A stretch of 64,000 nucleotides of DNA, from positions 2,200,902 to 2,264,901 of the forward strand of contig CM082585.2 of NCBI GenBank assembly GCA_040954595.2, read 5' to 3'. This DNA is from Balanoglossus misakiensis (Eukaryota; Animalia; Hemichordata). Of the stretch, positions 4,288 to 50,100 are shown piece by piece. Within the stretch, counting starts at the first letter, position 1. Every line of letters starts with the position of its first letter. The position numbers and the translations under genes are program-made. The notes under the pieces were generated by a model that was given only the letters and a program-made list of their open reading frames with translations, had not been told where the DNA came from and did not search any database.

Positions 4288-6256
4288 CTGTTGTGATTAT
4301 TGCTGGAATAGGCAATGTTTTAATCTGCCTGCAAAGACTCGTGTGACAAAGATTGTCGGCCAGTCAACATCACCAACGATATTAACAATATAAAATAAAT
4401 AAAATTTCAACGATTCAACTTCTTTTCTAGCTTCCTATCTGGATAGTTTGTTTTTTTTACTCTAAAGATCGCCTTTCTTCCAGGCCACGTGGCAAGAGAC
4501 GTTATCAACTTCTACTATGATCGATGCGAGAGTACTATAGTATTCTCATATACACAGACAAAGGCCACCAAAATAAGAGAATCATTTGGTCAAATGGTAG
4601 AGGGCGCAAAAACAGATATTTCAAATGACAAAATTTTCCGATAAACGTGTTTAATCAAATCAAACTGTGCTCAATGGTATGCTTGCAAAAATTGAATACA
4701 AATGAAACAAAACACAGCAACTGCCATGAACAAGAAGTTTATTCATGTCAAAATTCAATTTTTTTGAATCATTGATTTCAATTATCAGCTGAAAACTAAA
4801 ATTAGATTGTCATCTTGAACAGTATAAAATCAGCGAGCCATTAGACATTAAGTACCCAGCATACTAAAATAAAACCATGTAAACATGCACAATTAGATAA
4901 TCAAATAATTTTTATTTATTCACCATGATGTTTTTAATGTATGTCAAGTCAAAGTACTTGAAGTTATGGACGATCAATTAAAATAGAAAACTGTAATTTT
5001 AATGGCTGGGTAATGTATCCAATTTCTGCCCAATATATGAAATTTCCGAGTTAGCAACTGAAGAATTCGTGGGGAAAATAGTTACGTGATGTGTAACAGA
5101 ATTCACTTGGAAGTAAGGAGTTTTTGTAAAATCAACATGCATATTACAATTTATTTGTAAAAACTTGATTGGCAATGGAAAATTGGCGTTTAAATATATA
5201 GTACTTCAAGATGAACAGATAAAATATAAGTTATTACAGATGTCATTTTACGACAACAAGGAATGGTAAATCGTTCTTTAATATCTTTAAAGATGCCAGG
5301 TCAAAGGTCACCTTTGCAAATTCAACCACTGGTACCATAGCCATTTCAAATGTAGCCAAAAGTGCGCCACCACTTTCTTCAAACATACTGAAACCATCTA
5401 CAGGTTACCGTAGTCATATATCTCTTGGCATCCATGGCAGTTTAGCTAGTCATGAGCTGGCAAGGGGTGACCTGTAAGCTTTAAACTCTGGCTTCGGTAA
5501 TGTCGACTCTGGCTCTGGCATATACTTGCAGGTCCATATGACCTTGGGGTGAACATGGTCATGAAGAAATAAATAGAATCTGTTTGGTGCATTGTCAACT
5601 TCATTTTATAGTTTCAAAAAATTACAATATGATGAGTAATATTGTTGTTGTTTTCAAAGAGACTCACCACACACTTTAGTAAATCAATGACTTGAAAAAG
5701 TTTTGAGGACTATCATTTGTCAGAATCTCGGACCGCGAGGCACATACTACCTTAAATAGTTTCACTCGCAGCTTCTTGTGGGCAGTTTCTCCTTGCGTAC
5801 CTGTACAGACACACCAGGAGGCCGTTCCCGATGAACAACTCAACCCACATGAAAACATTCAAGCGTCTGGTCACACCCATTTCCGTCAAACAAGAACATG
5901 AATGAAACTGCGGAGGAAGAGAACGGGAGAGTGCCCATTAACCCTGTAATGACCAATCATTTACTGGAACAAGGTTCAGGATGTACGATCACTGGAGTTG
6001 AAAATAAGGTCATGGATTTGAAAATTATTTTGAGTTATGAAATTGAAAATACATATTTTTCATTGTGGATTCTCCGACATAAATATTATCAAAAACAATA
6101 AGGGTTGTCTTTTTAATTTATGACATATAACGCCATGAATCTAGCCCATTAATACAAAGGCAATACTAAAACACATTTCGGGTTAGCGTTATGACAACTT
6201 GAAGAAAGTATGAATACAAACTTTCTAAAGTAATATTTTAAAGGTTGGCGTATTGA
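4288..6256 (+). repeat. ~1.97-kb direct repeat, copy 1 (paralog at 21090-23058)
   Basis: Both copies start CTGTTGTGATTATTGCTGGAATAGGC and end AAGGTTGGCGTATTG, and are collinear with scattered substitutions. ORFs 5676/22480 and 5898/22702 are duplicates. Confidence 0.93.
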
Positions 6257-6369
6257 TTACAGCTTGTTTGTTCTGCTATTAATGGAAATTCGGTTAGAGC
6301 CGTTTGAGGCAACTCTTATTCTGTCAAAGTTATGGCGTTAACTTATTCTGATAAAGTTATGTTAACGCT

Positions 6370-7154: not shown

Positions 7155-8082
7155 TAGCCTGGAGACCAGGGCGTCGGGGAAAAGAAACGCCCGGGGACAG
7201 TCTCTATTTACGAACAGAATTCTGTTCGTAGAACGACACGTGTGGTAAATCTTGCGTGTAAGCTAATTGGTCACTCAATGTTAACCACATGACATCGTCG
7301 CCTTCTAAATAAGGAAATAGAGGTGGAGTCATGTGTGAAATTCCCGCGATGGGATGTGGGAGTGGTTTTGAAAGTGTATGAATATTCATAACCAAGCTTT
7401 GTTAAAGGCACGTAAGGTGTAACTTTTGGGATAATTTTCATAATTTTTGTTTCAAACTGCACTACCATTAGTCCATGCAGATGGAGGTAGTGAACAATAC
7501 ACAAGCATTATAAACCCTAAGTATGAGTGCATATGCAAGTTTTAACCAGATAAATAATAAAGCTTTGCCGCAAGCGATTATGGCCGCCACCGTGGGAAAA
7601 TGCAAGAAACAATGAAAATGTTGCATTTCCGGTTGTGAAACTTCATAAACAAAACATGATCTCATCCACTTGAGCTCATGGAAGTAAATGTACACCACTG
7701 AGACATCAGATTTTCATTTTTCATTGCAATATTGCGCTTTTTTTAAAATTGCAGGAATTTTCGTTTTTCTTTAATTTTTGGCCATTTTGTCATAAATAAG
7801 TGTTGAGCTTGATATATTATCATGAAATAGCATTTAATAGACATAATTAAAAGCATATATGAGATTATTTAAAACTTTAATTTTTTATCCAGTTACAGCT
7901 TACGTGCCTTTAATTATATCATCCAACCACTGGCGCCCGTCAACATTTGATAGATCACTCGTTATCCATTTGTTACTAAGCGACCTCGATCGTTGCCAAG
8001 ACTACTATCTTTCAGCTCAGCAGGACTTGCTCGACTGTCCCCGAGCGTTGTATTTTAGATCGACGCCCTGGTCTCCCGGCTA
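7155..8082. mobile_element. Non-autonomous TIR DNA transposon, Academ(H)-like, 928 bp
   Basis: TIRs TAGCCTGGAGACCAGGGCGTCG...GGGGACAGTC and GACTGTCCCC...CGACGCCCTGGTCTCCCGGCTA. Perfect 9-bp TSD AGATTGTCA at 7146-7154 and 8083-8091. TAG..CTA ends with a 9-bp TSD fit AcademH. Confidence 0.85.
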
Positions 8083-9628
8083 AGATTGTCAATATATACG
8101 CTGCATGTTGCCAGCCAGGGCCCCGACTGACATTCCCTCTGAATATACACACCCCTCTATTGAAAATGGAACATTCCTGCAAGCAAAGCATGTTGTACTT
8201 GCTTACATCAGCTGTAGTGACTTGTGTAGACCCCCAGCGCGCGGCCTCTACTGTCTGTATATGGTCTGTCACAGTCCCCGGGAGTAACTGTCATGACAGA
8301 AATCGGTTTGTCAACGGCAAAACGGAGATAAGGTGTTTTTTCCGAATATAGAATATTCAATTCTGTTTGATTCGGTCATGCCCAAAGTGTGCGTAGCTGT
8401 CGTCCTCTGACAACGCTCGCTCATATTTCATGCGGAGAACTTAAGTAGGTTCAAGCCAAGTTTTAATAGTTGGGCTAAGGTCTTCCCTGATAAGTGTTGA
8501 AATGTTTGGGGTGTTACTGTCCGGGCTGTAACGACTTGGGTCGTGGAAAATGGGGGCTGAAACGACTGGGGCCGAAAGGGTCAGAGTGCCGGAACGACCT
8601 GTTTAAACATGTCGTTCCAGCACTATGACCCTAAAGTGTTACCTAAGATAGTGTCCAGCGTCTAGCCGTTATTGAAATTATAGACCCTGCAGCGAGACTG
8701 AGCATGATTTGTTGTTGTCATGAAACTCATCTCGTACTCCAGTCACTTTCATACAAAACGGCTATGAGTGTCCAATGGTCTTTGTTGAGACTGTTTGACA
8801 TTGAATGGCATTGACCTCGCGGGAGGATATCCTTCATGAATACAATGCAGGATATAATTTACATTGGCTAAGGGCTTTGAGGTGCACCAAATTAGTAATT
8901 TAGACACACCTTAATTATTACATGCCACCCCAAACTTTTTTAAAGCAAGAAACAAAATTGCAGTGCTTTTCCAATGACGCTTTTTAAAATGTAGAATCAG
9001 ATTGTTTTCTTGTCGCTCAGGTGTCCAAAATAAATATAGCTGTGATCAATTCCTACTTAAAGCAAACAAAAGTAAATTGAGTTGAATGGGCACGTCCGGC
9101 CCATATTTGACCCATTTCACATTTTTTCTTTCTTAGGCTGCATTCACAAACACCTCTGGAGGGGGGGGGGGGGAATTCATCTTTTACCGCTAATTTTCAC
9201 ATGCCCCCCCCCCCCCCTTTCACAACCCGAAATATTTTGAAATCCCCCTTCCGAACTGCCAAAATTTTGAAATCCCCCCATTTTCTTTCACAGAGCAAAA
9301 CTCATAACTCTGCTCAAGCGCTCCCATGAAAAGAATTTGAAACTGATGTTTCCCCTCATCAGTGGGTATTAAAACTGAACATTGTTTTTATTTTTTAAGT
9401 ATTTTGTATGATTATAATTAAAAAATATACAACTTAGCTAAAATGCTTAGATGAGTTAATCAGATTTTCAAAGTCCACCTAAAAGATCATTTAATCTTTC
9501 CAGGGTGCGGTTTATGTTGGAGATAGTATCAGTTAGGCTATTTCTCAGAAAATCAATGAACGATCTGCGGACACCCCGAATAATATGTTACCACAACGCT
9601 AGCCAGGAAGCACATGAGACATTTCACA

Positions 9629-9833
9629 ATGAGGCAGTGAACACTGGGGGGACCAGACTGACACGTTAACCAATCAGGGAGCTGTATGGTGAATAAATAC
9701 ATATTAATAAGACCTAACCTACAAGGTCCTGCATAATGAGGCAGTGAACACTGGAGGACCAGACCTACACATTAACCAATCAGGGAGCTGTAAAGTGAAT
9801 AATGCATTGTAATAAGACCTAACCTACAAGGTC
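9629..9833 (+). repeat. Two-copy ~107-bp tandem repeat
   Basis: AATGAGGCAGTGAACACTGG...TTAACCAATCAGGGAGCTGTA...AATAAGACCTAACCTACAAGGTC occurs twice. Confidence 0.8.
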
Positions 9834-9977
9834 TGGTGAATAATACATAGTAATATGACCTAACACATAAGGTCCCTCCAATCAGCGAGCCGCAAGTGGA
9901 CCTTAGAGAAGTGGATAAACCAATCAGAACATGTAATACGTGTGCATAGGACCTGTAATGTAGGTCATTTTGAAACA

Positions 9978-11993
9978 GGACTAGTTCACCATGACCAACC
10001 ACATGACCCAGGAAATCGATCTGCTCATAACCCACATAACACTTAGTTGGTCTCGCTGTTAACTTTGCCTTTCGTAGTCTGCTCATCAAATCTGTAATTG
10101 TCTTGATATGTTCTTCCCATGATGCAGTGTGGATCAGTATGTGATCGATATAGTTGTCTACGTTCTTCATATCTCTTAACAATCTTCTCATAATTCTGCT
10201 AAAAGTCGCAGCACTATTTACAAGTCCGAAAGGCATTTTGATAAATTGGTATAGCCCATCATGCGTGATAAATGCCGTCAATTGTTTAGAATTATCAGTC
10301 AACGGGACTTGCCAATATTCTTTGCTGAGATCTACTTTAGTGAAATAGTGATCCTTGGATAACTTAGCAAAAAGCAAAAAGCTCACTCAGGTCTGGTGTA
10401 GGCTCTGCATCAAACACTGTTATGCGATTGAGCTTTCTCATGTCAACACAACAACGATTGGACCCATCAGATTTCTTCACCATTACCAGTGGAACAGCAT
10501 ATGGACTCTCTGAAGGTTCAGCTACTCCCATCTTAATCATCGTTTTGACTTCATCTTTCACTGCTTCACGGAGTGCATGAGGGATGGGGTATGGCCTACT
10601 GCATACTGGTGTTGGATCCATCAACTTGATGTCATGGAAACCCAGGTTGGTGTTACCACGAATATCAGTTAACATATCTTTGTAATTGATCAGCAACCTC
10701 CTCACCACTTGCTTCTGTATGTCTGACAAGTTGTCACATACATTCACATCTGCAGCAAATTCTTTCTGCTTGAATGCAGGAACCCGCAGTAAGTCATCGT
10801 TTACTTTAACCCCTGTGTTCTCTTGTACTTCTGAAGATTCATAACTCTGCTCATCTATCACAGATACACACACAATCTCAAGAAGTCCAGCTGATACTTC
10901 ATCTAGCTGATCAGTTCTTCGATAGTACCTCTTCAACAGGTTGGCATGGAATGTTTTCACCCTATGACCAAAGTCAATCTTGTAATCCATATTGCTCGCT
11001 TTCTCCACCACTGGAAAAGGACCCTTCCAGTGCATAAGTAGTTTATTATGGTCAGTAGGTAGTAGCAATAACACCTCGTCACCTTTGTTGAACTTCCTCC
11101 ATTTGGCCTTTCTATTGTAGTAGGACTTGTATTTGCCTTGTGATATCTTCAGTTCTTGTCTTGCTAAATCGCATGCCTTCTTTAATTTCTTTTGAAGATC
11201 AAGGATGTATTGATAAGTCGTTTTGGTTTCTGGTTCACTGATCTCTCCAGTCCATAGTTCTTTCAAGATAGCCATTGGACCACGCACACTCCTCCCATAA
11301 AGTAACTCAAACGGAGAGAATCCTGTGCTCGATTGAGGCGTTTCTCTGTAGGCAAATAGTAAAGCATTCAGATAACGATCCCAATATGTTGGACGTTCCT
11401 CACACATCTTCCTGAGCATGAGTTTCAATGTACCATTGAACCGTTCCACTAGACCATTGAATGCTGGGTGGTATGGGGTGGTAGTCATCTGCTTTATAGA
11501 CAAAAGCCGGCTGACCTCACGCATCACATCTGATGTAAATTGAGTTCCTTGATCTGTCAGAATTTCACGTGGACACCCCACTCTTGAGTAGATGTCCAGG
11601 AGCGCCTCTGCAACAGTCTTGGTATCAATGTTAGTCAATGCAACAGCCTCCGGATAGCGTGTTGCATAATCAACAACAGTAAGTATGTACCTATTCTTGC
11701 GTTCAGTGCATGGATGAATAGGGCCAACCAGGTCTACTGCAATACGTAGGAAAGGGATATCTATTAGTGGCATACTTCCAAGTGGTACCTTGGTCACCCG
11801 TCCCTTTGGTTGTGTCCGTTGACATGAATCACAGGACTGACAGTAACGGGAAACATCTGATGTTAGCCCAGGCCAAACGAAGTTGCTGAGGATCTTGTCT
11901 GTGGTCTTGTGAGTTCCGTGGTGACCACCCAGCACTGATTCATGGGCTAGTCTCATCACCTGGTTACGATACACTCTGGGAACCACCACCTGT
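9978..11993 (-). pseudogene. pol: Gmr1 pol, 3' part: integrase followed by reverse transcriptase (frameshifted, truncated)
   Basis: IN zinc domain (AHESVLGGHHG...CQSCDSC), rve core (VDLVGP, TDQGTQF, GLVERFN) and WKGPF. RT motifs follow: SPYAVPLVMVKK, VDMRKLN, DLSKEYWQV, MPFGLVNS and YIDH (mutated YIDD). A frameshift at 10367-10380 is caused by a 7-bp duplication. Confidence 0.93.
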
Positions 11994-12842
11994 CACTACA
12001 GCTTGAACGACGCCACCTATGGGCAGTATTTCCGTGGCAGCCTATGAAGCTCATGAATATTTAATTAGACACAGTAATGGCGTTCGCGATCGAACACAGC
12101 TGTCGATGCACAGCATAATTCGGTGAGTAATATTGCTTTATTCCAAGTTTTGTTTAGTAAAATTAGCAAGATGTCAGAGACAATATGAAATAAAGTTGCG
12201 ATTCTGCTGTGTTATTTATGTGTATCAGCCAAATAACTTGAACATTTTGATCACCCGCTGACAGTCCCTGGCCGTTGCTATAGCAGAAGCCGTCCTAAGC
12301 AACCATAAACAAACACTAAAAATTACAACGATTCAGCTTCACAGAATTGTTTTTTTCAATTTGAAAACCATACGAATTTAGTCTTTTATACGTAAACATA
12401 GGATTCCATGTTTAAAATGCTGCTACAAGCAATATGACGAAATCATACCAAGCGAAAATATACGACCCTGTGTGTTCCTTGGCAGCAGCACGGGTTACAT
12501 TGATTGTAATGGCGGCGCTTCGAATTTTCGGCGACATGGTGATATTGTTCATAGAATTGACAGAAAATAAGACCGTAACTGAAAAATCAGAAACCAATAG
12601 TTTGTGCTAAAATATATTCTTGATATAATTCGCTGGAAATTCGAGGGTGAAAACGAAATAAGAAAAAAATGAATGGGCGAGATTGTTATGGTAAGGTTAC
12701 CCACATTCTTTCTATGTCACCTTTGACCTCAATTTCTGGAGGAAGTATAATGAGCAGGTGTTTTGTTTTTGCTTCCCTCGGATAGATAATTATTGTAAAG
12801 ATATTTCTCTTGTTCACCCTTTTCAGGTATAGATTTAGAGCC

Positions 12843-15800
12843 ATGTGGGGCAAACTATTCAACAGGAGTAGCGCACTTCTTAAAAGTTTGTCTATTGTTA
12901 TGCCGAATAGAAAAGGGAAAAGTTACTTCAACATAGGCCAGTGGGCAAAGGACCAAAAGATAGCGAGACAGGTAGCTGAAGAGAAGTGTTTACAACAACT
13001 ATATCAGGAGAAATTGAAGACTAGATCTTTGTCTGGGAGCGTGGCCAACAACCTATTGGTAGTTAGAACAAAGAGAGGACAGACTAAACACAGGTTTAAC
13101 TTAGGAGAGTGGTGTAGACAGAGAAAGAGAAAGAGAGATGAGGAAGAAAGCATAATTCAGGATAAGTTGAATAAGTTGAGTGCAGCTAGGAGACTAGTAA
13201 AAAGATCCTCAACCCAGCTAGCTAGACTAGAGAAGAAGAACAGTAAGATTTGTGAGATCTTAGCTACAAAGAATAATAAGAGAAAGGTAAGCTAGATCAG
13301 ATAAATAGACTTAGTCATAATTTTAAAAATCTCAGATTTGTATAAATCCTCTTCAAATTTTAGCCCAAATTCGCTTTTTGAACTTCATGTCACATGATCC
13401 TGTGTAAACAATGATAACAAAATGGGTTCAGCTTTGATGCAAAACATCTAGGTTTTCCAACAAACTATGTATATTTTTTAGGATTTTTATTGCAGAAGTT
13501 GTCAGAAAAATACAGGCTACACGTGTGTATTTCTTATCAAGGACATTTAAATTAATGATTAACTTGTAAGAAGATTTTATTTTATATATAATGATTATAT
13601 TCTAATTAGTATATATTTATCACACACTTAATCTTTCAGATTCCTGTTGATGTTGTTAATGTGAAACGCTCTAAATGGGTCCACAAGAACACTGAAGTAT
13701 GTGCAGATAATAGTGAATCTTTGAAGCTGTCGCGACGTCAACAGTATGAACGTAGATGTGAAACCTTATCAGCAGCCATAAATATTCATGTAGCAACTAC
13801 AGATGTAAGCCCAGCCAAAGGTATAAATAAACCGAATGTACTACATCCACCAAAAGCAGCACTTGATGGTTTGTGGTATACTCTTGTTAATTCTGCCACT
13901 CCTGACCAAATGAAAACATTCTTCAGAACCTCTCCCCAAATCAGTAAAAAAGTAATGCCATCAGTATTTGATAAATACATCAGTAAATTTGAGAAAAGTG
14001 AGAACAATTTGGTGAGGAGTGTCAGAACTATGTATGAGGGCGGAGTACTATCCAAACGAAAATATAACTGTCTGAGGCAGAGTGAACTTCAGATGTTCTC
14101 CAACTTGAAACATCCTAGGAAAGCATTAGAAATTCATTCTGGCTGTAGAATACCAAGACTGCTCCCATACACAAAAGTTGTACAGTATGTAAGTAACCTT
14201 GACATTGGAAATCTTGAGCCAATTATATCATCTGAAGGCAAACAAGTCGGCTTAAAAAGAAACCCTGAGGAGTTGCTTATTAAGATTGCCAGTTTATATT
14301 TAAATATGGGGGAAACACAGCCTGATATTCTTAACTGGTTCGGTAAACAGGAGGGCTCATTTCAAATCAGTATAGGTGCTGACGGGGCTCCGTTTGGCAA
14401 ACATGGACAGGCCACTGCATGGCTAGTTAGTTTCTTGAATGTGACCCACCGTGTTGCTAGCCCAGACCACAATTTTCTCCTATTAGGGGCAAACATAAAA
14501 GAGGATGACCCCATAATGATTGAATTTGCAATTGCATTGTCAAAAGACCTTGAGTGTATTGAGAAACGTAAATATAAAGTTGGCAGTCTTGATGTAACTT
14601 TTCAGGTGTCACTTTTACCCTTTGATCAGAAGGGATTGGCCAGTGTGTCTGGAGAACTAAGCAATGCAGCAAAGTATTTCAGCTCATTTGCTAACGTTCC
14701 AAAAATGATATTGATTGTATTGGAGCAGAAATTGGCCCAGGTCAGAAGTGGGATGAATGGAAATATCAGAAAAGAATTAAAGATGCAGAAGCTGTTGAAA
14801 AGTTGAAGTCAACTAAGAAAATTAAAACTGGAAAGCCCAAAACAGTGCGACCCAAAATCACACAATTTATAGCCAGTCTGAGGTCAAGACAGGAATTTGT
14901 ACCACCGTTGGGTAGATTTATTGATTGTGCCAAGGCTGAGCCATTGCATTTAAAGAACAATGCATGGCAATACTACTTCCAACGATTACTGATTGACGCA
15001 GTTGCCCACACTTCGGAAAAGGGTCGTGAAAATGGAGTTAAAATTGAGAATCTACCTAACGAGTCATATCTGTACAAATTCCTGTCTGCCCTAAAATATC
15101 AAGTAAAAGCTGGAAAGTTGTATAATAAGATTGTAAAATACTTCAATGAAAATAGTGTCAAGTCAAATGCCAACATTAATGTGGTTTATCGCTTCACTGG
15201 TGAGGAGTCTCGCAAACTTGCTTGGCATTTCATAGGATTGGTATTAGCATTGAGAAGCGATACAGACAGACCAAAGCGTCGGGCTCAATTAGCTCTCTAC
15301 ACATATACTGGTATCTTGCTTAGAGATATCACTTTGTTATTCTCACGATTCAACATAAATGAGGGAGATTTGCTTGTACTTAGGCATAAGTGTCGGTGGT
15401 ACTTTAATCTACATTCCCTGTTTCTGAATGTCAATAATACTGTGTGGCACATTGGTTATGTAGTCCCAAAACACACCACTAGTATCTATAAGCAATTCAG
15501 TCTGGGATTAGGCCTAAACACAATGGAAGGCAGAGAGGCAAAGCATCTTCGCCTGCTAGAATTCAGTGAAAATTCTACACCTCAAAATAGGTGGGCCCTC
15601 ATATTTCGACACGAATATGTGATGCTTTTTTGGCTGAGGAACAAAAGTCCAAAAGCTGACAACTATAGAAATGCAAATGTAGGTCAATTTGAGCTTAAAG
15701 AAAAAGAAAAATACATTCCCAGTCGATATTATGAGAATGCAGGCTACTGTATGTGTGGCAATTTAAAAAAATGAAACAATGACTGCCTGTGAAATATGTG

Positions 15801-15880
15801 TTGACCCAATTATGGATGACATAAAAAAAGCAGCTGTCACTGGTAAAATATCAAATAAACTCAAGAAACTTATGCTGTGA
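12843..15880 (+). CDS. Spliced RAG1/Transib/Chapaev-like DDE transposase, ~890 aa after two single-base frameshift corrections
   Basis: Exon 12843-13286 (AAG|GTAAG, phase 0) joins in frame to the exon starting at 13640 (TTTCAG|ATT). Motifs in RAG1/CMC order: IGADGAPF (D), PFDQKGL (D), AEPLH, RFTGEESRKL, VWHIGYVVPKH and GLNTMEGREAKH (E). Frameshifts lie at ~14698 and ~15770 (A-run); the corrected tail is CMCG..CEIC..KLML*. A probable non-coding exon ends at the GTGAGT donor at 12122, with the acceptor at 12826. Confidence 0.82.
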
Positions 15881-16732
15881 ACAATGATTGAATTTGAAAC
15901 AGTGGATTGTGTCACTGTGTGCTACTTTAGAATTAAAGGATAACTATAGTATTAATTACATTACAGAATTATAAAGACTCATCTGTAGTTGAGAGCTGCA
16001 TTTAATAAAAATGGAGATCACAAATCACATGAATTCACACTTTTTGAACTGGAGATGATATGTTTCTTATGGGATTTTGTATATGTGTGCATGTATGGGG
16101 ACAGGGAAATTGAAACTTATCTTACCACTATTAAGTATTGTGAATAAACCCTTAATCGTATAGTGATTGCAGTGCTTTGCAAAATTAAAATGTATGACAT
16201 ACATAAGCTTGATAGAAAAGTTTTACATTTTTCTTGAGGAGTTGTTTATTCTGCACCTGCACGAAATTTTAATGAATTTGTGAAAAAATAAAGAATTAAG
16301 TCTCATCAAATTCTTGATATTTATAAATTTTGTCATGGAATTAATTGTAAATATTAATTAAATTTAGACCAGAAATCCTGGTTAACTGTTAGATGAGCAG
16401 TTTTGATTGACTTATCAATGTTGATTGTAGGTAACATACATTTTTTTCTGAAACTAATGAAAAATCTATGTTACAATAATGATGGAAAAAAAGAATTTTA
16501 CAGTTTAGGAAATTTTGTAAACATTATCTGTTCATTTGTATTGAATGTAGATAAATAAAGACAAGTGATGAATTTTTGAGTCTTCTAATTTTCCTTTTTT
16601 TATTTGAATATATGTCAATTGTGAGAGGACTGTCTTGACAGACTGATACATCTACACTGAACAACATGTGCCACAGATCAGGAAAAAAATGTTCCTCAGA
16701 TGGGTTGAATCAGTGTGAAAAATCAATAGGGT

Positions 16733-17383
16733 TCAGTTCTCTGGATGTAATGGAATTCCATGTTTGTTCCAGGCACCAAAGCTGAATCTAACAGCAACAG
16801 TCTCCCTGTTGATAAAATATTTCACAACACAGGGCTTCTCAGGTGTGAATATAACAGCTACCCTCTTTCCACGGACTTTCTTCTCTAGGATATTCTCTGT
16901 ATGCTGACCGATAGCGCCCTCGTAGCAATAACCTTTCCGTATCACATACAATAGCTTCAAGGAACTTGTGAAGGTCAAGGTTATGATAGCCCTGGAGGTC
17001 TTCTCGTCGATACCAAAACCGGTCCGAGTAGCAAACTGATGAAAAACATCAAATACTTCCCTCGGCATTTGTCGTGTAAAGCTGCTTTGCCATGGTGACC
17101 TTAACGACGGGGATGTTGACAGCCGAGCGTAGAAGGTCTTCTGCCAGTAGGTCATATCACGCTGAAACATGGGAAATACGGCGACGTCACGCCAACGAAT
17201 CTTGTCCTTTGACAGCTTGTCGTTTCGAAATATGGCCCTTGTTGTCACATCCTCAAGTTCATCAAAGAGTGGGTGTATATACAGATTGTCCGACACGCAT
17301 TTTTTACGTTTAAGCACAGATTTTGCCTCTCGCAATTTGCGTTTTATAACTTTCTCGGCATCGATCAACACGGGCGCCGCCAT
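16733..17383 (-). CDS. 216-aa basic orphan accessory protein of the transposon, function unknown
   Basis: Intact single-exon ORF with good start context (GCCAAGATGGCG) 84 nt inside the right terminus. It is convergent with the transposase across an AT-rich spacer with poly(A)-type signals on both strands. No kelch/PHD pattern. Confidence 0.72.
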   Translation of the reverse strand: MAAPVLIDAEKVIKRKLREAKSVLKRKKCVSDNLYIHPLFDELEDVTTRAIFRNDKLSKDKIRWRDVAVFPMFQRDMTYWQKTFYARLSTSPSLRSPWQSSFTRQMPREVFDVFHQFATRTGFGIDEKTSRAIITLTFTSSLKLLYVIRKGYCYEGAIGQHTENILEKKVRGKRVAVIFTPEKPCVVKYFINRETVAVRFSFGAWNKHGIPLHPEN

Positions 17384-17467
17384 CTTGGCAATGCGTTGCT
17401 ATGGTGAACATGGGAGCTCGCGCTTCGCGGAATACTGCCCAACATAGCTCTAGTATTTCCCGCAGTG

Positions 17468-19290
17468 TGTAACAGCTTTTCACCAAATTGGACCATTGGC
17501 GAATTGAACTCTCTGTACAGGATCCCATCTTTCATGATGAACTTCAACCTACCTCCATTCCTAGTCACTTTCTCGTCACCCAAAATTGCCTTCTCACGTA
17601 GTTTGTCAAGAGTGGAGTCTTCTTCTTGAGCTTGTTGAAGCTTCCCTGGCATCACCACTTCACCAACAGCTTTAGGTACTTTAAGCTCTCTGATTGGTTT
17701 TTGGTTGGCTATCTTCTGGGCTCTGGTCTCCACAGCATTTGCTAAACCTGGTACCTGTCCAACAGTTGTACACAGTCTACATGTCGGCAATGGTTCCTGC
17801 CATGTAGTATCAGGATTCGAAGGGTCAGATACACCATCAATGTTGCCCAGTATTAAATCATACACATGGTTCATCATGCACAGTGCAGTAACATCACCAA
17901 CAAAGTAAGGGGTATCAACTTTTATAGAGGCTACAGGTACTCTTCTAATAGTCCCATCTATCAGAACACACGTCCTGTACTCACCAGTCAGCTGATTACT
18001 TGACACCAGACTTCTTCGAACTACCACGCTACTACACCCACTATCACGCAAAACGCTAACCAGCTTACCATCGAGCAATCCCTTCATTACCGGCATCTTC
18101 TTCACTCCATGGGCACTACAAGCAGCACTCATCACTGGGAGCTTATGACCACATGGTAACACGAACTCCTTATTCAGTGTTGCATCTGTTTTATCTATTT
18201 CCATTGCTACCACCATACATGCATAACCAGTGTCTAGTCCCCTGGGCTGTTGACGGTTGCCCCAATGTGTACATTCTTGTTTAGGTGGATAGTTTCTATC
18301 TTCTTCAGTTAACAATACCGCCGTCTTATGCATCTTTGGCTTACTTCTACAATCTTTGGCCATATGACCACCTTTACCACATACGAAGCACGTACCTTTA
18401 AAAACATGGGAACCATTGGTTTTGTTATTAAACTTATTTACTTGATTTGGATATACAGAAGGCTTGGTATTTGCTGTCGGCTGGCTCCTTGGATTATTCT
18501 TGGCATTACTTGGCAGTTTCCACCACCCTCGGGCATCTAAGTATTTTGAGGCAGTAGATACCATCTCTTGGACATTCTCTGGCCGTCGCTCTCTAATGAA
18601 CATTGCCATGTCTCTGGAACATACTCCAATAAACTGCTCTCGAAGTAACAGATCTGTAAGCCCATTGTACGTCTTTGGAGTACCAGCCAGTTCTACCCAT
18701 CTGCCCAAATAGTCACCAATACGGTCCATAAACTTTTGAGCACTTTCATCATAATGTGGCATACACGAACGGAACTTGTCATGAAAACTCTCCTCACTTA
18801 ACTGGTAAGCCCTCAATAACTCTGGTTTCAATTCATCATAATTATTTGCAGACGCTGCAGGCATTTGGTTGTATGTGGATACATCCTTACCTTGTAACAA
18901 TATGCACTGAGATTCACCCCCAGTCATCTTTTTCCCACTTCTGAGCAGTGGCGTAGCGCTGAAAACGTTGAAGGTACGCATCCATATCATCAACATCCTC
19001 ACGAAAACCCTGTAGTCTCGGAGCACGCGCTTTGGCCAAATTATTTTCAGTAACCTGCTGTTCTGTATTTTCCCCTTTCAATTTTAATTCTTGTAAGTGA
19101 ATTTGCATTTTCAGTATCTCTCTCTCATGTTCCTCGCGCCGCCTATTATCTTCTCTCTGCTCCTCTCTCTCAGTAGCCCTAAGATCCCTCTGTCTAATTT
19201 GTTCCTCTCTAACATAATCTTTTAAAGCAGTCCCTTCCAACCCAAATTTTCTCCCTATCTTAGATATTCTTTCTGCATATATGCTTTGCT
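17468..19290 (-). pseudogene. gag: Gmr1 gag (SCAN-like capsid, CCHC knuckle) and aspartic protease, frameshifted near 18915
   Basis: DMDAYLQRFQRYATAQKW; YDELKPELLRAYQL...LLLREQF...FIRERRP (SCAN-like); CFVCGKGGHMAKDC; LRDSGCSSVVV; DLILGN. The start position is approximate. Confidence 0.9.
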
Positions 19291-19559
19291 GTATCGCGAT
19301 TTACAACCCCCAGTTTGACAACCCCTAGCAGTACAGGGCATTCAGCACAAGTCAACACAGCCAAACGCACGACGCAAACCAACACGGCCCATATTATATA
19401 GCAGGAAACCACAAGCGCACATACAGTAACAGTACCAGCCTACAGACCCAGCACCGTCTTCACAATTTGCAGAATCTCTACCTATCAAAACCATGGTCTC
19501 CACTATATGGCAACAATTTATGATAGTATACAAACAAATGCACAACAAAACGATAAAAC

Positions 19560-19576
19560 TCCCGGACGAGCCCCCA
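19560..19576 (-). promoter_or_regulatory. Primer binding site complementary to the tRNA-Pro 3' end
   Basis: The minus strand reads TGGGGGCTCGTCCGGGA, the classic tRNA-Pro PBS (as in MLV), 2 nt after the LTR-terminal CA. Confidence 0.92.
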
Positions 19577-19578
19577 AA

Positions 19579-20875
19579 TGTCAGAGGTGGAGGGCACCCC
19601 TCTGATTCCAGGATAAATATTGAGCAGCTCTCAGTGCCAAGGAGTAAACATCCGTGGATAAGGTATGGGGAGAAACTACACAAACCAGTGCGGATACAAT
19701 AATACAGTTGATTTAATTTAAATCAATTAAATAATATAAAGATAATACTAGGAATATAATTTTTGTGCACAATATGCACAATATCAAATGTCTCTGTCCT
19801 AACCAATTTAGCAGGTACAGGTATGCTGATACAATTGGTCATACAATACAATGGGTTACTTAATATATTACATAAATGAATATATTCACAATATCACTAT
19901 AGTTTATTGTCTATTGCATATTGTCTAAACAATGGTAAGTGTCACTTAGCTGTATATAACATTCATAGTAAACAATCATGATTCAACCACAATATGGGAT
20001 GGAGTCCTGTATAGATGAACGATGTAGCGACGATCCACATTACACATACAATCTGTGATACACCATGTTTTCTACCACTTGTAGTCCTCCAGTAGTCAAG
20101 TAAACACACTGAAGACTGACTTGTTAGATGCAAGTCTTGGGTTAAATGGCTGAATGAAAAATCAACAAACATTGACTGAAATGTCCACCTTAGCAACTGT
20201 TCACAAATGAATACTGACGTTTCTCAATAATAATTATCAGAAATTTGGACTAGTTAAAGCGTCATGATTACATGTGATATCATGGAAAATTATGCTTTAA
20301 CTATGACCGTCCTATTACTTACAAATTGTCGAATTTGACATAAATATCCATAAAATATAAATTTAAGTTATAGTAAATAAATAAACAAATACATTACTTA
20401 CACGAGAATTCTTCACCACACTTCATGCTCAGCAATACCGGGTCTATAGGATGGTTCCACAGAACTCTGCTTGGAGCAATTTCCAGCCACACCACATACG
20501 ACCATGCCAGCCACGCCAATCGCCCGACCACACCGGTTTGCACTGAATAAGCACAATTCTGCTTTCTAGAAGTACTGAATTTACTTCCACTCGAATTGCA
20601 GAAACAGTGGTCCTGAGAGCACTAATGCGCGCTACAGCATTACATGGACACAGCAAGGTATGGTGCAATATTTCCCCTAGTATTTCTACTCACTGAGCAG
20701 GGAGACCCGACTTGTTGCTCCCTTCAAGACCTAAATTGAAGTGTGCTCTCTTACTACACGAAACTTAGCTAACGAAGCCATATTCATTAACATGACAATA
20801 CACGGTGTCACTACACCTGAAATTATGCGGGCACCTGGGTTTCCACTGACTCCAGTACTACCTAATTATATGACA
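19579..20875 (-). repeat. 5' LTR of the Gmr1 element (~1.3 kb; partner LTR absent)
   Basis: The inner end is fixed by TGTCA adjacent to the PBS. The outer end is inferred from TGACA at 20871-20875, where homology to a paralogous flank (3954-3978) begins. Confidence 0.72.
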
Positions 20876-21089: not shown

Positions 21090-23058
21090 CTGTTGTGATT
21101 ATTGCTGGAATAGGCAATGTTTTAATCTACCTGCAAATACTGGTGTGACAAAGATTGTCGGCCAGTCAACATCACCAACGATATTAACAATATAAAAATA
21201 AATAAAATTTCAACGATTCAACTTCTTTTCTAGCTTCCTATCTGGATAGTTTGTTTTATTTTACTCTAAAGATCACCTTTCTTCTAGGCCACGTGGCAAG
21301 AGACGTTTTCAACTTCTACTATCATCGATGCGAGAGTACTATAGTATTCTCATATACACAGACAAAGGCCACCAAAATAAGAGAATCATTTGGTCAAATG
21401 GTAGAGGGCGCAAAAACAGATATTTCAAATGACAAAATTTTCCGATAAACGTGTTTAATCAAATCAAACTGTGCTCAATGGTATTCTTGCAAAAATTGAA
21501 TACACATGAAACAAAATACAGCAACTGCCATGAACAACAAGTTTATTCATGACAAAATTCAATTTTTTTAATCAGTGATTTCCATTATCAGCTGAAAACT
21601 AAAATTAGATTGTCATCTTGAACAGTATAAAATCAGCGAGCAATTAGACATTAAGTACCCAGCATACTAAAATAAAACCATGTAAACATGCACAATTAGA
21701 TAATCAAAGATTTTTTATTTATTCACCATGATGTTTTTAATTTATGTCAAATCAAAGTACTTGAAGTTATGGAAGATCAATTAAAATAGAAAACTGTAAT
21801 TTTAATGGCTCGGTAATGTATCCAATTTCTGCCCAATATATGAAATTTCCGAGTCAGCAACTGAAGAATTCGTGGGGAAAATATTTACGTGATGTGTAAC
21901 AGAATTCACTTGGAAGTAAGGAGTTTTTGTAAAATCAACATGCATATTACAATTTATTTGTAAAAACTTGATTGGCAATGGAAAATTGGCGTTTAAATAT
22001 ATAGTACTTCAAGATGAACAGATAAAATATAAGTTATTACAGATGTCATTTTACGACAACAAGGAATGTTCAATCGTTCTTTAATATCTTTAATGATACC
22101 AGGTCAAAGGTCACCTTTGCAAATTCAACCACTGGTACCATAGCCATTTCAAATGTAGCCAAAAGTGCGCCACCACTTTCTTCAAACATACTGAAACCAT
22201 CTACAGGTTACTGTAGTCCTATATCTCTTGGCATCCATGGCAGTTTAGCTAGACATGAGCTGGCAAGGGGTGACCTGCAAGCTTTGAACTCTGGCTTCGG
22301 TAATGTCGACTCTGGCTCTGGCATATACTTGCAGGTCCATATGACCTTGGGGTGAACATGGTCATGAAGAAATAAATAGAATCTGTTTGGTACATTGTCA
22401 ACTTCATTTTAAACTTTCAAATAAATAACAATATGGTGAGTAATGTTTTTGTTGTTTTCAAAGAGACTCACCATACACTTTAGTAAATCAAAGACTTGAA
22501 AAAGTTTTGAGGACTATCATTTGTCTGAATCTCGGACCGCGAGGCACATACTACCTTAAATAGTTTCACTCGCAGCTTCTTGTGGGCAGTTTCTCCTTGC
22601 GTACCTGTACAGACACACCAGGAGACCGATCCCGATGAACAACGACACCCACATGAAAACATTCAAGCGTCTGGTCACACACATTTCCGTCAAACAAGAA
22701 CATGAATGAAACTGCGGAGGAAGAGAACGGGAGAGTGCCCATTAACCCTGTAATGGCCAATCATTTACTGGCACAAGGTTCAGGATGTACGATCACTGGA
22801 GTTGAAAATAAGGTCATGGATTTGAAAATCATTTTGAGTTATGAAATTGAAATACATATTTTTCATTGTGGATTCTCCGACATAAATATTATCAAAATCA
22901 ATAAGGGTTGGCTTTTTAATTTATGACATATAACGCCATGAATCTAGCCCATTAATACAAAGGCAATACTGAAACACATTTCGGGGTAGCGTTATGACAA
23001 CTTGAAGAAAGTATGAATACAAACTTTCTAAAGTAATATTTTAAAGGTTGGCGTATTG
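21090..23058 (+). repeat. ~1.97-kb direct repeat, copy 2
   Basis: Collinear near-identical copy of 4288-6256. Confidence 0.93.
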
Positions 23059-23591
23059 CTTAGCATAATCATTTTTCCGTTTGCTGTGACATTTGTCTCC
23101 CTGTGAGAGTTTAAGTAAATGTAGAGTCACGCAAATTAGGCAACATCAATATCCCATACGTAATTCAGTGTGTTTTGTTCGCATTTTTGGTTTTCATTTT
23201 GAAAATGAACAAAGGACTTTCCTATCATTGACCAACACTCGTATGAATACATCCAAATTACCCAACTTTAATTTTCCTTAAAGAATTGGTCAGCTCTGCG
23301 AATATATTTCACCTGACCACTTCCTTTGCTAAGGAAGAGTGTTGTTTATGTAATAATATTTTTATAATATTTATAACTTATGTAGCACATTAAATCTCAA
23401 CGTGCTTTAAGTTGTCCCATGGTCATTTGAGCTAGGATGTTGGACCTAAATATTCCATTCAACTCCCTGGGGAGCAAACAACATCTCACCATCATTAGAA
23501 ATGCCAAATTACAGTGCTTTTGGCCACGTATTAACCTGGGGATTTACAGTTAACTTTAAATACACACGCATATGCATTTAATCCCCATGTG

Positions 23592-27600: not shown

Positions 27601-28225
27601 GTCAAATTACAGTGCTTTTGGCCACATATCAACCTGGGGATTTACAGACAACTTAAAATCCCCCTCAGCATGCATTTAATCCCCATGTCAAAGTGCAGAG
27701 CTTGCATCACCATCTACCCCTTACAGTACTTATGGCCATGTATTAACCTAGGGATTTACAGTCAACATTAAATACCCATGCATATATTAACCTGGGAATT
27801 TACATTCAACATTAAATACCCATGCATATATTAACCTGGGAATTTACATTCAACATTAAATACCCATGCACATGCATTAAATACGTATGCCAAAGCGCAG
27901 AGCTTGGATCACCATCTACACTGATGCATCATTAGGCTTGCTACGCCATTTCCCCTAATGCAAAGAATCACATTCAATGTCACCATTGTATTAGCTATGT
28001 CAAATTTCAGTGCTTTTGGACTTGTATTAACCCAGGGATTTTCAGTCAACTTTTAATCCCCACATGCATTTAATACCCATGTCAAAGTGAAGTGTTTGCA
28101 TCACTATCTACCGGGATGCATCATCAAGCTTGCATCGCCATTTACCCTGATGCAAAGAATCAGATTCAGTGTCACCATTTCATTAGCAATGTAAAATAAA
28201 ATTGCTTTTTGCCAAGTATTAACCA
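27595..28225 (+). repeat. Short array (~3 monomers) of the ~194-bp satellite
   Basis: GCAATGTCAAATTACAGTGCTTTTGGCC...TGATGCAAAGAATCAGATTC monomers, the same as in the 44.2-59.6-kb array. Confidence 0.9.
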
Positions 28226-28623
28226 GGGGTACCAATTCTCTGCCCTAGCAAGGGCCAGGGGTACTTATTCTCTGCCCTAGTAAAGTTTACAATCCCATAA
28301 ATCACTATTGCAATAACATGAACTATGACATGTTCAATGCACAGCAAAACAGCAGCAACCAATCCAATTGAATGTTAAAACATGTCTCAATATTTATTAT
28401 CAAATATTAATTTTTAAGATTACCCTAAGAAGTCTCTATAGTATCACACATTTTAACATCTAGGCTAGCTGATGATAAGTAATACTTACCAGAAACTTGT
28501 CCATATCTGATGCTTTTTGACAACAATACCAAAAGTGGTTCACAATGTGGGTCACCCATTTCAGCAGTGGTTTGCACTCTTTGTTTTGTGCAGCCTTAAA
28601 AAAACACAGAATACACTCATGAT

Positions 28624-43391: not shown

Positions 43392-44022
43392 CATACATGC
43401 AACGCCTGTATTTAACACTTTCTATTGTTCTCGCCCCGAAGATATTTTACGGTATTTCACAATGTGAAAATATCGCGTCCACGTCTCGGCGTGACAGTTC
43501 ACTGCGCGCGCGAGCGACACACGGGGCATAGTGGAGAGGGGTGTTGTAAAATTCGGTTATTAGAAGCTGTAATAAAGTTTTCAAAGCTGGCGGTTTTGTC
43601 ATGTTGAATGCATCAGTTTTAGTTCTTCGAAATTCTCAATGCAAAATAATTGTTAACATGATATTTTGAAAGAGAACGTAGACAATTTTATTTAGAATGT
43701 GGATGTGCCCATCGTAATGAAAGCTGCCAACCCCCTTAAAATGATACTACGGCCCACACGTCATACGTCACAACATGGCTACTGCCGTGATCCCAGCGCC
43801 CGGTTCAAATTTGAAATTATTTTTCTCGGCGCATTTCTGCAAATCGTACTGTTTTATAGGTAGGCATGTATGATAAAGAGGTTATTACACGAATTTTGGT
43901 CGATAACGCGACGCATTCTCGTGATGTCTGTATTTTGACTCGTTGCGAAGCGCAACTCATCAAAATACGGACATCACTCGAATACGACGCGTTATCGACC
44001 AAAATTCGTGTAATAACCCCTA
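43392..44022. mobile_element. ~630-bp insertion ending in a ~140-bp palindrome (43880-44018)
   Basis: It interrupts TGTAATA|ATATTAATATAATATT, which is contiguous in the paralog at ~27451. The hairpin is GGTTATTACACGAATTTTGGTCGATAACGCG...CGCGTTATCGACCAAAATTCGTGTAATAACC. Confidence 0.78.
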
Positions 44023-44164
44023 AATATTAATATAATATTTATAACTTATGTAGCACATTAAATCTCAACATGCTTTAAAGTTGTCCCATGGTAATTTGAC
44101 CTAGGTCGTTGGACCTTACTATTCCATTCAACTCCCTGGGGAGCAAACAACATCTCACCATCAT

Positions 44165-47100
44165 TAGAAATGTCAAATTACAGTGCTTTTGGCCACGTAT
44201 TAACCTGGGGATTTACAATCAACTTTAAATCCACATATGCACCATATTCCAATGTCAATGTGAAGGGCTTGAAATACCATCTACCCTGATGCATCATCAA
44301 GTTTGTTTCGACAACTTTAAATCCCCTTCAGCAAGCATTTTATACCCATGTCAAAGTGCAGAGCTTGCATCACCATCTATCCTGATGCATCATCAAGCTG
44401 CTTCGCCATTTGCCCTGATGCAAAGAATCAGATATAGTGTCACCATTGCATTAGCAATGTCAAATTACAGTGCTTTTGGCCAGGTATTAACCTGGGGATT
44501 TACAATCAACTTTAAATCCCCATATGCACTATATTCCAATGTCAATGTGAAGGGCTTGAAATACCATCTACCCTGATGCATCATCAAGTTTGTTTCGACA
44601 ACTTTAAATCCCCCTCAGCAAGCATTTTATACCCATGTCAAAGTGCAGAGCTTGCATCACCATCTATCCTGATGCATCATCAAGCTGCTTCGCCATTTGC
44701 CCTGATGCAAAGAATCAGATATAGTGTCACCATTGCATTAGCAATGTCAAATTACACTGCTTTTGGCCATGTATTAACATCGGGATTTATAATCAACTTG
44801 AAATCCCCATATGCTTTTTATACCCATGTCAAAGCGAAGTGTTTGCTTCACTATCTACAGTAATGCATCGTCAAGCATGCTTCGCCATTTGCCGTAATGC
44901 AAAGAATCAGATTCAATGTCACCATTGCATTCGCAATGTCAAATTACTGTGCTTTTGGCCACATATTAACCTGGCGATTTACAGTCAACTTTAAACATCA
45001 GTGCATATGCATTAAATACACATGTCAAAGTGCAGTGTCTCCATCACCATTGATCCTGATGCATCATCAAGCATGCTTCGTTATATGCCCTGGTGCAAAG
45101 AATCAGATTTAGTATCACAGTAGCATTAGCCATGTCAAATTACAGTGCTTTTGGCTATGTATTAACCTAGGGATTTACACTCAACTTTAAATCCCCATAT
45201 GCATTATATGCCAATGTCAATGTGAAGGGCTTGAAATACCATCTACCCTGATGCATCATCAAGTTTGTTTCGCCATTAACCCTGATGCAAATAATCAGTG
45301 TCACCATAGCATTAGCAATGTCAATTTACTGAGCGTTTGGCCATGTATTAACTTGGGGGTTTACAATCAACTTTAAATCCCCATATGCATTATATTGCAA
45401 TGTTAACTTGAACGGCTTGAAACACCATCTATACTGATGCATCATCAAGCTTTCTTTACAATTTACCCTGATGCAAAGAATCAGATTTAGTGTCGCCATA
45501 GCATTAGCAATGGCAAATAAAAGTGTTTTCGGCCACATATTAACCCAGGGATTTATAATCAACTTGAAATCCCCATATGAATTTTATACCCATGTCAAAG
45601 CGAAGTGCTTGCATCAATATCTACCGTGATGCATCATCAAGCTTGCTTCGCCATTTGCCCTAATGCAAAGAATCAGATTCAATGTCACTGTAGCATTAGC
45701 AATGTCAAATTACAGTTCGTTTGGCCGTATACTAACCTGGGGATTTACAATCAACTTTAAATCCCCATATGCATTATATTCTAATGTCAATGTGAAGGGC
45801 TTGAAACACCATCTATCCTGATGCATCATCAAGCTTGCTTCACCATTTTCCCTGATGCAAAGAATCAGATTTAGTGTCACGGTAGCATTAGCAAATCCCC
45901 ATATGCATTTAACACCCACGTCAAAGTGAAGTGTTTGCATCCCTATCTACCGTGATGCATCATCAAGCTTGCATCGCCATTTACCCTGATGCAAAGAATC
46001 AGATTCAATATCATCGTTGCATTAGCAATGTCAAATTACAGTGCTTATGGCCACGTATTAACCTGGGAATTTACAGACAACTTTAAATACCCATGCATAT
46101 GCATTAAATACCTATGTCAAAGTGCAGAGCTTGCATCACCATCTATCCTGATGCATCATCAAGCTGCTTCGCCATTTGCCCTGATGCAAAGAATCACATT
46201 CAATGTCACCATTGCATTAGCAATTTTAAATTACAGTGTTTTTGGCCATGTATTAACCTAGGGATTTGCAATTAACTTTAAATCCCCATATGCGTTATAT
46301 TCCAATGTCAAGTGAAGGGCTTGAAACACCATCTATCCTGATGCATCATCAAGCTTGCTTCACAATTTACCCTGATGCAAAAAAATCACATTCAGCGTCA
46401 CCATTTCATTAGCAATGTCAAATTACAGTGATTATGGCCACGTATTAACCTGGGGATTTACAATCAACTTTAAATCCCCATATGCGTTATATTCCAATGT
46501 CAATGTGAAGGGCTTGAAATACCATCTACCCTGATCCATCATCAAGCTGCTTCCCCATTTGCCCTGATGCAAAGAATCAGATATAATGTCAACATGGCAT
46601 TAGCAATGTCAAATTACAGTGCTTTTGGACACGTATTAACACAGGGATTTATAATCTACTTGAAATCCCTATATGCTTTTTATACCCATGTCTAAGCGAA
46701 GTGTTTGCATCACTATCTACTGTGATGCATCATCAAGCATGCTTCGCCATTTACGCTGATGCAAAGAATCAGATTCAATGTCACCATTGCATTAGCAATG
46801 TCAAATTACAGTGCTTTTGGCCATGTATAAACATCGGGATTTATTATCAACTTGAAATCCCCATATGCTTTTTATACCCATGTCAAAGCGAAGTGTTTGC
46901 ATCACTATCTACAGTAATGCATCGTCAAGCATGCTTCGCCATTTGCCCTAATGCAAAGAATCACATTAAATGTCACTGTTGCATTCGCAATGTCAAATTA
47001 CTGTGCTTTTGGCCACGTATTAACCTGGCGATTTACAGTCAACTTTAAATCCCCATATGCATTATATTCCAATGTCAATGTGAAGGGCTTGAAAAACCAT

Positions 47101-50100
47101 CTACCCTGATGCATCATCAAGTTTGTTTCGCCATTAACCCTGATGCAAATAATCAGTGTCACCATAGCATTAGCAATGGCAAATAAAAGTGCTTTCGGCC
47201 ACATATTAACCCAGGGATTTATAATCAACTTGAAATCCCCATATGAATTTTATACCTATGTCAAAGCGAAGTGCTTGCATCAATATCTACCGTGATGCAT
47301 CATCAAGCTTGCTTCGCCATTTGCCCTAATGCAAAGAATCAGATTCAATGTCACTGTAGCATTAGCAATGTCAAATTACAGTTCGTTTGGCCGTTTACTA
47401 ACCTGGGGATTTACAATCAACTTTAAATCCCCATATGCATTATATTCTAATGTCAATGTGAAGGGCTTGAAACACCATCTATCCTGATGCATCATCAAGC
47501 TTGCTTCACCATTTTCCCTGATGCAAAGAATCAGATTTAGTATCACGGTAGCATTAGCAATGTCAAATTACAGTGCCTATGGCCACGTATTAACCTCGGG
47601 ATGTACGGACAACTTTAAATACCCTTGCATATACATTTAATACCTATGTCAAAATGCAGAGCTTGCATCACCATCTACTCTGATGCACCATTAGGCTTGC
47701 TACGCCATTTCCCCTAATGCAAAGAATCACATTCAATGTCACCATTGCTTTTGGCCATGTATTAACCTGGGGATTTATAATCAACTTTAAATCCCCGTCT
47801 GCGTTATATTCCAATGTCAATGTGAAGGGCTTGAAACCTGGGGATTTACAGTCAACTTTTAATCCCCCTGTATACATTTTAAACCCCGGTGTCAAAGTTT
47901 AGTGATTGCATCATCATTGACCCTGGTGCATCATCAAGCATTCTTCAGAATTTGCCCTGATGCAAAGAATCAGATTCAATATCACCCTTGCATTAGCAAT
48001 TTTAAATTACAGTGCTTTTGGACATGTATTAACCTGGGGATTTACAGTCAACATTAAATACCCATGCATAGGCATTAAATACCTATGTCACAATGCATAG
48101 CTTGCATCACCATCTACTCTGATGCACCATTATGCTCGCTACGCCATTTCCCCTAATGCAAAGAATGACATTCAATGTCACCATTGCATTTGCAATTGTA
48201 AATTACAGTGCTTTTGGCCATGTATTAACCTAGGGATTTTCAATCAACTTTAAATCCCCATATGCGTTATATTCCATTGTCAATGTGAAGGGCTTGAAAC
48301 ACCATCTGTCCTGATGCATCATCAAGCTTGCTTCACAATTTACCCCGATGGAAAGAATCAGATTTAATGTCACGGTAGCATTAGCAATGTCAAACTACAG
48401 TGCTTATGGCCACGTATCAACCTGGGGATTTACAATCAACTTTAAATCCCCATATGCGTTATATTCCAATGTCAATGTGAAGGGCTTGAAATACCATCTA
48501 CCCTGATGCATCATCAAGTTTGTTTTGACAACTTTAAATCCCCCTCAGCATGCATTTAATCCCCATGTCAAAGTGCAGAGCTTGCATCACCATCTATCCT
48601 GATGCATCATCAAGCTGCTTCGCCATTTGCCCTGATGCAAAGAATCAGATATAGTGTCACCATTGCATAAGCAATGTCAAATTACAGTGCTTTTGGACAC
48701 GTATTAACACAGGGATTTATAATCTATTTGAAATCCCTATATGCTTTTTATACCCATGTCTAAGCGAAGTGTTTGCATCACTATCTACTGTGATGCATCG
48801 TCAAGCATGCTTCGCCATTTGCCTTAATGCAAAGAATCAGATTAAATGTCACTGTTGCATTCGCAATGTCAAATTACTGTGCTTTTGGCCACGTATTAAC
48901 CTGGCGATTTACAGTCAACTTTAAACATCTGTGCATATGCATTAAATACGCATGTCAAAGTGCAGTGTCTCCATCACCATTGATCCTGATGCATCACCAA
49001 GCATGCTTCGCTATATGCCCTGATGCAAAGAATCAGATTTAGTATCACAGTAGCATTAGCCATGTCAAATTACAGTGCTTTTGGCTATGTATTAACCTGG
49101 GGATTTACAATCAACTTTAAATCCCCATATGCATTATATTCCAATGTCAATGTGAAGGGCTTGAAATACCATCTACCCTGATGCATCATCAAGTTTGTTT
49201 CGCCATTAACCCTGATGCAAATAATCAGTGTCACCATAGCATCAGCAATGTCAAATTACTGAGCATTTGGCCATGTATTAACTTGCGGGTTTACAATCAA
49301 CTTCAAATCCCCATATGCATTATATTGCAATGTTAACTTGAACGGCTTGAAACACCATCTATACTGATGCATCATCAAGCTTTCTTCACAATTTACCCTG
49401 ATGCAAAGAATCAGATTTAGTGTCGCCATAGCATTAGCAATGGCAAATAAAAGTGCTTTCGGCCACATATTAACCCAGGGATTTATAATCAACTTGAAAT
49501 CCCTATATGAATTTTATACCTATGTCAAAGCGAAGTGCTTGCATCAATATCTACCGTGATGCATCATCAAGCTTGCTTCGCCATTTGCCCTAATGCAAAG
49601 AATCAGATTCAATGTCACTGTTGCATTAGCAATGTCAAATTATAGTGCGTTTGGCCGTATACTAACCTGGGGATTTACAATCAACTTTAAATCCCCATAT
49701 GCATTATATTCTAATATCAATGTGAAGGGCTTGAAACACCATCTATCATGATGCATCATCAAGCTTGCTTCACCATTTTCCCTGATGCAAAAAATCAGAT
49801 TTAGTGTCATGGTAGCATTAGCAAATCCCCATATGCATTTGATACCCATGTCAAAGTGAAGTGTTTGCATCACTATCTACCGTGATGCATCATCAAGCTT
49901 GCATCGCCATTCACCCTTATGCAAAGAATCAGATTCAATGTCACCGTTGCATTAGCAATGTCAAATTACAGTGCTTATGGCCACGTATTAACCTGAGGAT
50001 TTACAGTCAACATTAAATACCCATGCATATCCATTAAATACCTATGTCAAAGTGCAGAGCTTGCATCACCATTTACTCTGATGCACCATTAGGCTTGCTA

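Follow-up and report, generated by a model that had tools for sequence, protein, structure and literature searches.

A 64,000-nucleotide stretch of the genome of the hemichordate Balanoglossus misakiensis (hereafter the window) carries a DNA transposon in which a small second gene runs convergent to the transposase gene and begins close to the right end of the element. The locus raises the question of what this partner gene is, whether it belongs with the transposase, and what it might do for the transposon.

The element and its surroundings

The transposon, whose coordinates are collected in Table 1, starts with CACTACAG and ends with the reverse complement of CACTGCGG, its left and right ends having an internal GGGCAGTATT block in common. 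It lies in what we take, from its motifs, to be the pol region of a minus-strand LTR retrotransposon, whose order of gag, protease, integrase and reverse transcriptase presumably corresponds to the Gmr1-like arrangement among Gypsy elements. This host retrotransposon spans window positions 9772-11992 and 17365-19300 on the minus strand and is bracketed by 1975-bp direct repeats (4288-6259 and 21090-23062; 96.9% identical, 16.8 kb apart), which may be LTRs of great length or else a tandem unit. A large satellite-like array, built on a period of ~192-196 nt and showing higher-order structure, occupies positions 44000-61000 and 27700-28360. In run X1, contig depth is flat at ~1360-2060 over positions 8047-20524, which include the transposon and its flanks, and diverged paralog contigs lie at depth 114-262; this depth is not a copy number and hints only faintly that the block as a whole is multi-copy. 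One diverged paralog of that run (record 8) matches both ends of the partner open reading frame (ORF), at window positions 16735-16782 and 17329-17442, and bears an end of its own, which reads GTAGTG; further contigs of the run match portions of the transposase. As the transposase of the window copy carries two frameshifts, this copy is probably non-autonomous.

Table 1. Coordinates of the features of the transposon and its insertion site in the window
Feature	Position	Strand	Remarks
Whole DNA transposon	11994..17467	.	5474 bp (5.47-kb); CAC..GTG termini
Target-site duplication, left copy	11991..11993	+	TGT, 3 bp
Target-site duplication, right copy	17468..17470	+	TGT, 3 bp
Left imperfect terminal inverted repeat	11994..12035	+	starts CACTACAG
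Right imperfect terminal inverted repeat	17426..17467	-	inward reading CACTGCGG
Probable first coding exon of transposase (inferred)	12843..13286	+	148 codons; GT donor 13287
Transposase main exon, predicted RAG1-fold DDE	13641..15880	+	frameshifts near 14700 and 15767
Partner gene, 216 aa	16733..17383	-	651-nt uninterrupted ORF, convergent to transposase
Partner start-codon context CAAGATGGCGGC	17376..17387	-	exact match to TISU/YY1 consensus SAASATGGCGGC
Candidate polyadenylation signal of partner gene	16599..16604	-	weak; AT-rich region
LTR retrotransposon pol frames flanking the element	17365-19077 and 10364-11992	-	by motifs

The partner family and its linkage to the transposase

The sequence-only reading had described an uninterrupted, basic, aromatic-rich ORF of 216 residues starting 84 nt from the right terminus, and each of these features was recovered: the frame measures 651 nt, its product has a pI of 10.0 with 12% aromatic residues, and its ATG lies 84 nt inside position 17467. 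In 500 shuffles of the element no ORF of 216 codons arose, the longest reaching 154. The same reading had set the openness of the frame against the lesions of its neighbors; the frame is indeed open, but the contrast is not significant and carries no weight, because two frameshifts in ~2680 coding nucleotides leave a probability of ~0.62 that 651 nt would escape a lesion.

The gene had also been called an orphan, a description that has to be withdrawn. Pfam and word-index searches with the window protein gave no relatives. A phmmer search of 1.84 billion representatives recovered 81 at E<=1e-3, 12 of them at E<=1e-10, with identities of 20-39%, lengths in many cases of 205-245 aa and, in most, a shared C-terminal motif, G-x-W-N-x-x-G-x-P-x-H. 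Since all 58 proteins found in a profile search carry Pfam PF26709 (58/58), the family is, by sequence, already catalogued under that entry through its relatives. The named members are uncharacterized proteins of Acropora, Pocillopora, Actinostola and the ribbon worm Tubulanus, and several clusters consist of near-identical copies across many large contigs. The pI exceeds 9 in 59 of the 74 aligned members; the best-conserved columns are Pro, Phe, Tyr, Gly, Trp, Asn, His, Arg and Lys, and the alignment contains no invariant acidic set.

A confident structure model of the partner (pLDDT 91) displays a helical hairpin of three N-terminal helices followed by a seven-strand alpha/beta domain. The four beta-like stretches noticed earlier (residues 133-140, 175-180, 185-190 and 196-203) fall on predicted strands E133-138, E173-178, E185-190 and E195-205. 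Foldseek searches with the model gave no clear structural match (best E 0.024), and no structural homolog of known function was found for the alpha/beta part (best Z 4.5-4.9). The earlier inspection saw no kelch, PHD or Myb/BEN signature, and the window protein lacks Pfam matches to kelch, PHD, Myb or BEN domains; kelch and PHD are likewise without a match in 59 members of the family. Hence, the partner is predicted from its model to be unrelated to RAG2.

Scanning metagenomes with the transposase alignment yielded 212 confirmed stretches, and the following locus counts refer to the best 80 of these. A partner homolog was found at 34 of the 80 loci overall, at 34 of the 41 with at least 1000 nt of sequence downstream, and convergent with the transposase at 30 of the 32 with at least 1500 nt downstream; many of the 80 are copies of the same family, and the independent count is nearer 15. 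All 34 homologs lie 3' of the transposase on the opposite strand. Judged roughly by their length, 29 of 35 partner frames, the window included, are intact, and intact cognate transposase-partner pairs occur (e.g. L003, L006 and L075). No third ORF is conserved between families among 10 complete elements of 4.2-7.4 kb and three partner-less loci. Short plus-strand fragments of partner genes were seen near the left end at L073:1168-1260, L074:3228-3320, L075:804-896 and L048:3130-3483. The element ends across loci read CACG(C/G)(C/T)..., and the 11 loci retaining both ends and flanks comprise five with a 3-bp duplication, one with a 2-bp match and five with none, duplications of 4-6 bp occurring in 0/11. 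With the window included, the duplicated sequences are TGT, GAT, ATT, TTA, TAG and ATT. Two pairs of loci have a common left flank but different right flanks, which suggests collapsed assemblies.

The check on copies proposed with the sequence-only reading gave partner dN/dS values well below 1 in two diverged pairs: 0.33 in L056/L061 (Fisher p 8e-6) and 0.37 in L033/L039 (p 7e-4). The near-identical pair L067/L072 gave 0.07 (p 0.01), and other close pairs, those involving the damaged copy L038, gave 0.50-0.59. The corresponding transposase values are 0.21, 0.16 and 0.17 for L056/L061, L033/L039 and L067/L072, the partner thus evolving faster than the transposase in both diverged pairs. Across 13 families represented by one copy each, the partner and transposase similarity matrices are correlated (Mantel rho 0.535, reached in 1/10000 permutations), and the three transposase clades with strong support are each found again in the partner tree; the deep branches, that of the window among them, are without resolution in these trees. 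Such congruence speaks for long co-inheritance and not for physical contact, because linkage alone produces it. The partner is a coding gene under selection, which has a fixed convergent layout and is co-inherited with the transposase.

A predicted RAG1-fold transposase and its known counterparts

The main transposase exon aligns with its closest relative, P0001 of Ptychodera flava (75%), in three tblastn pieces of 58-74% identity, and 76 relatives of 630-806 aa were found in all, the others coming from corals, anemones, Lineus and Owenia. The probable first exon is proposed on the basis of its open frame and splice context; only 12 of its residues match the N-terminus of relative P0050 (9/12, pairwise E 4e-4), there is no match with L003, and by inspection it has three Cys in no evident zinc-finger pattern, a Chapa zinc finger being the N-terminal mark of Chapaev. 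Searched by sequence against solved structures (PDB) and Pfam, the transposase matched no solved structure and no transposase family, RAG1 included. The model of P0001 (pLDDT 91.7) retrieved RAG1 in Foldseek at E 1.7e-11 (TM ~0.55), followed by HzTransib (E 5.9e-7) and BbRAG1L (E 4e-6), with the P-element transposase far behind (E 5.5e-3). In an alignment of 63 rows, from which 13 of the 76 relatives were left out as near-duplicates, the catalytic triad (D181 in 63/63, D262 in 62/63, E566 in 63/63) is retained and the LH motif is invariant. Accordingly, the transposases of the element and its relatives are predicted to have a RAG1 fold. A C-x-C...C-x2-C tail follows downstream of the core.

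These features invite comparison with the CMCT clade, which comprises EnSpm/CACTA, Mirage, Chapaev including Chapaev3, Transib, Plavaka, ESTA and Lanisha (PMC12730594); the comparison takes in Lanisha by name alone (PMC8245031). The element resembles the clade in its CA..TG termini, a duplication within 2-5 bp, the D-D-E triad and the LH motif. It differs in that the C(2)C motif, described for all CMCT members (PMC12730594), is missing: CxxC occurs within 45 residues after the second Asp in 0/63 transposases. Before the catalytic Glu, where the clade has an H(3-4)H motif, one of the two His is conserved (61/63), and the full pattern occurs in 28/63. The CAC..GTG ends with a 3-bp duplication fit the EnSpm/Chapaev3 signature (PMC12730594, PMC4079192), and EnSpm can encode a second regulatory protein (PMC1131882). 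Nevertheless, no Pfam transposase family, CACTA included, was matched at E<=0.05 among the 63 transposases, and just one of six duplications fits the TWA rule given for Chapaev3 (PMC4079192). With Transib (HzTransib, PDB 6pqx) the element has the predicted fold and the CAC termini in common; unlike Transib, which has one gene and 5-bp duplications (PMC7204232, PMC1131882), it has two genes and 3-bp duplications, with the partner in 30 of 32 informative loci.

The closest parallel in layout is that of the RAGL transposons, in which RAG1L is convergent with a RAG2L of kelch and PHD domains and duplications are 5 bp (PMC7204232, PMC9435367). Like RAGL/ProtoRAG (PDB 6b40), our element has a transposase with a RAG1-fold model, CAC termini, marine invertebrate hosts and, between the terminal inverted repeats, two genes in convergent order. 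The RAG2L-like position proposed earlier is borne out to this extent, for the partner is a selected, transposon-borne, end-proximal and convergent second gene. Kinship with RAG2 and membership in ProtoRAG are not: in place of a kelch propeller and PHD finger there is a protein of 205-260 aa with a helical hairpin and an alpha/beta domain, the C(2)C motif is absent, and the duplications are 3-bp rather than 5-bp. Because of these differences the element seems to represent a two-gene lineage of its own within the CMCT/RAG1-fold group.

Possible role of the partner and its wider meaning

The start-codon context of the partner, CAAGATGGCGGC, matches the TISU consensus SAASATGGCGGC exactly. In 14 of 16 elements an ATGGCG start is situated 71-132 nt inside the right end, whereas GCG makes up 5 of the 399 Ala codons in nine transposase frames. 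TISU is described as working via YY1 close to the start site of genes whose leaders are very short (PMC3177215). Judging by sequence, a start of the TISU/YY1 type would account for the expression of a gene so near the end, although TISU was defined in mammalian cells and a GCG following the ATG is common among animal genes.

We regard the partner as the conserved second gene of a two-gene lineage and consider a basic, nucleic-acid-binding transposition cofactor its likely identity, at roughly even chances. In such a scheme a promoter lying within some 70-130 nt of the right end would drive inward transcription, the transcript having a very short leader and a translation start of the TISU/YY1 type. 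Binding of DNA, that of the element or of the target, would fall to the alpha/beta domain, in which Arg, Lys and aromatic residues are conserved, the N-terminal helical hairpin might oligomerize or dock on the transposase, and the protein could help to assemble or aim the transpososome. RAG2, TnpA of CACTA and the Myb protein of Harbinger have a similar role as transpososome helpers, which the partner would fill through an unrelated fold.

The faster evolution of the partner relative to the transposase fits a protein in conflict with the host as well as it fits a cofactor. It might thus be an anti-silencing factor on the model of VANC, which would bind the DNA or RNA of the element or a small-RNA or chromatin factor of the host and keep the element expressed, perhaps by mimicking the Argonaute N/L1 module. 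A start site at the very end of the element would permit early expression; the language-model features of the window protein lie nearest to Argonaute N/L1/PAZ clusters (0.93, at low recognition), and prokaryotic Argonaute complexes are among the weak Foldseek rows (E ~0.08-0.12). However, the recognition value is 1361 against a threshold of 2300, with 140 of 256 features shared; a second family member did not reproduce the lead (best 0.78), and ArgoN, ArgoL1 and PAZ have no Pfam match in 59 partner members. That families so far diverged nearly all retain the gene and give congruent trees would better suit an essential subunit than a counter-defense gene specific to one host, and we deem an anti-silencing role unlikely, if by no means negligible.

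The basic protein, the fixed linkage and the purifying selection would equally fit a regulator of copy number, a repressor that would bind the ends or the transposase and limit transposition; yet no specific sign points to it and deep conservation across families would be harder to explain for a pure inhibitor, making it distinctly improbable. The idea of host cargo picked up by the element, or of a frame open by chance and without function there, finds one point in its favor, a partner-like domain (residues 459-609, E 2e-4) at the C-terminus of P0141, a 613-aa gene model of Tubulanus. As the first 460 residues of that model are unrelated, it is more likely a model run into an element than a host gene, the alternative being a real exon capture. 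A captured host fragment had been named as a possible refutation of the sequence-only reading, and no host-gene match was obtained. The 500 shuffles without so long a frame, the same position and orientation in 34 loci, dN/dS below 1 and the many-contig, multi-copy nature of family members render such an explanation hardly credible. Among these readings we favor a transposition cofactor, a small share of the probability being left to some other role.

We found no description of the lineage in the literature searched, Repbase and paper supplements being outside its scope, and the available parts of bioRxiv 10.64898/2026.01.24.700457 and 10.64898/2026.08.26.747230 contain no account of it. The two-gene RAG1-fold lineage hence appears to be undescribed, in a comparison that had Repbase outside it and took in Lanisha by name alone. 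We tentatively raise the possibility, doubtful on balance, that this undescribed cnidarian and marine-worm lineage is a second, independently assembled two-component recombinase parallel to RAG1-RAG2, in which a transposase cutting with a 3-bp stagger after loss of the C(2)C zinc site of RAG1/CMCT would require an obligate partner of new fold.

PF26709, annotated as uncharacterized in coral genomes, is now tied to a mobile element, and a transposase family of predicted RAG1 fold is found without the zinc motif held common to the whole clade. In accounts of how V(D)J recombination arose, the passage from a single-gene transposase of the Transib type to one that requires RAG2 is still to be explained. 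With the gene layout of RAGL but an unrelated partner, a widespread lineage of predicted RAG1-fold transposases offers a natural comparison for that dependence, and suggests repeated acquisition of partner genes by RAG1-type enzymes.
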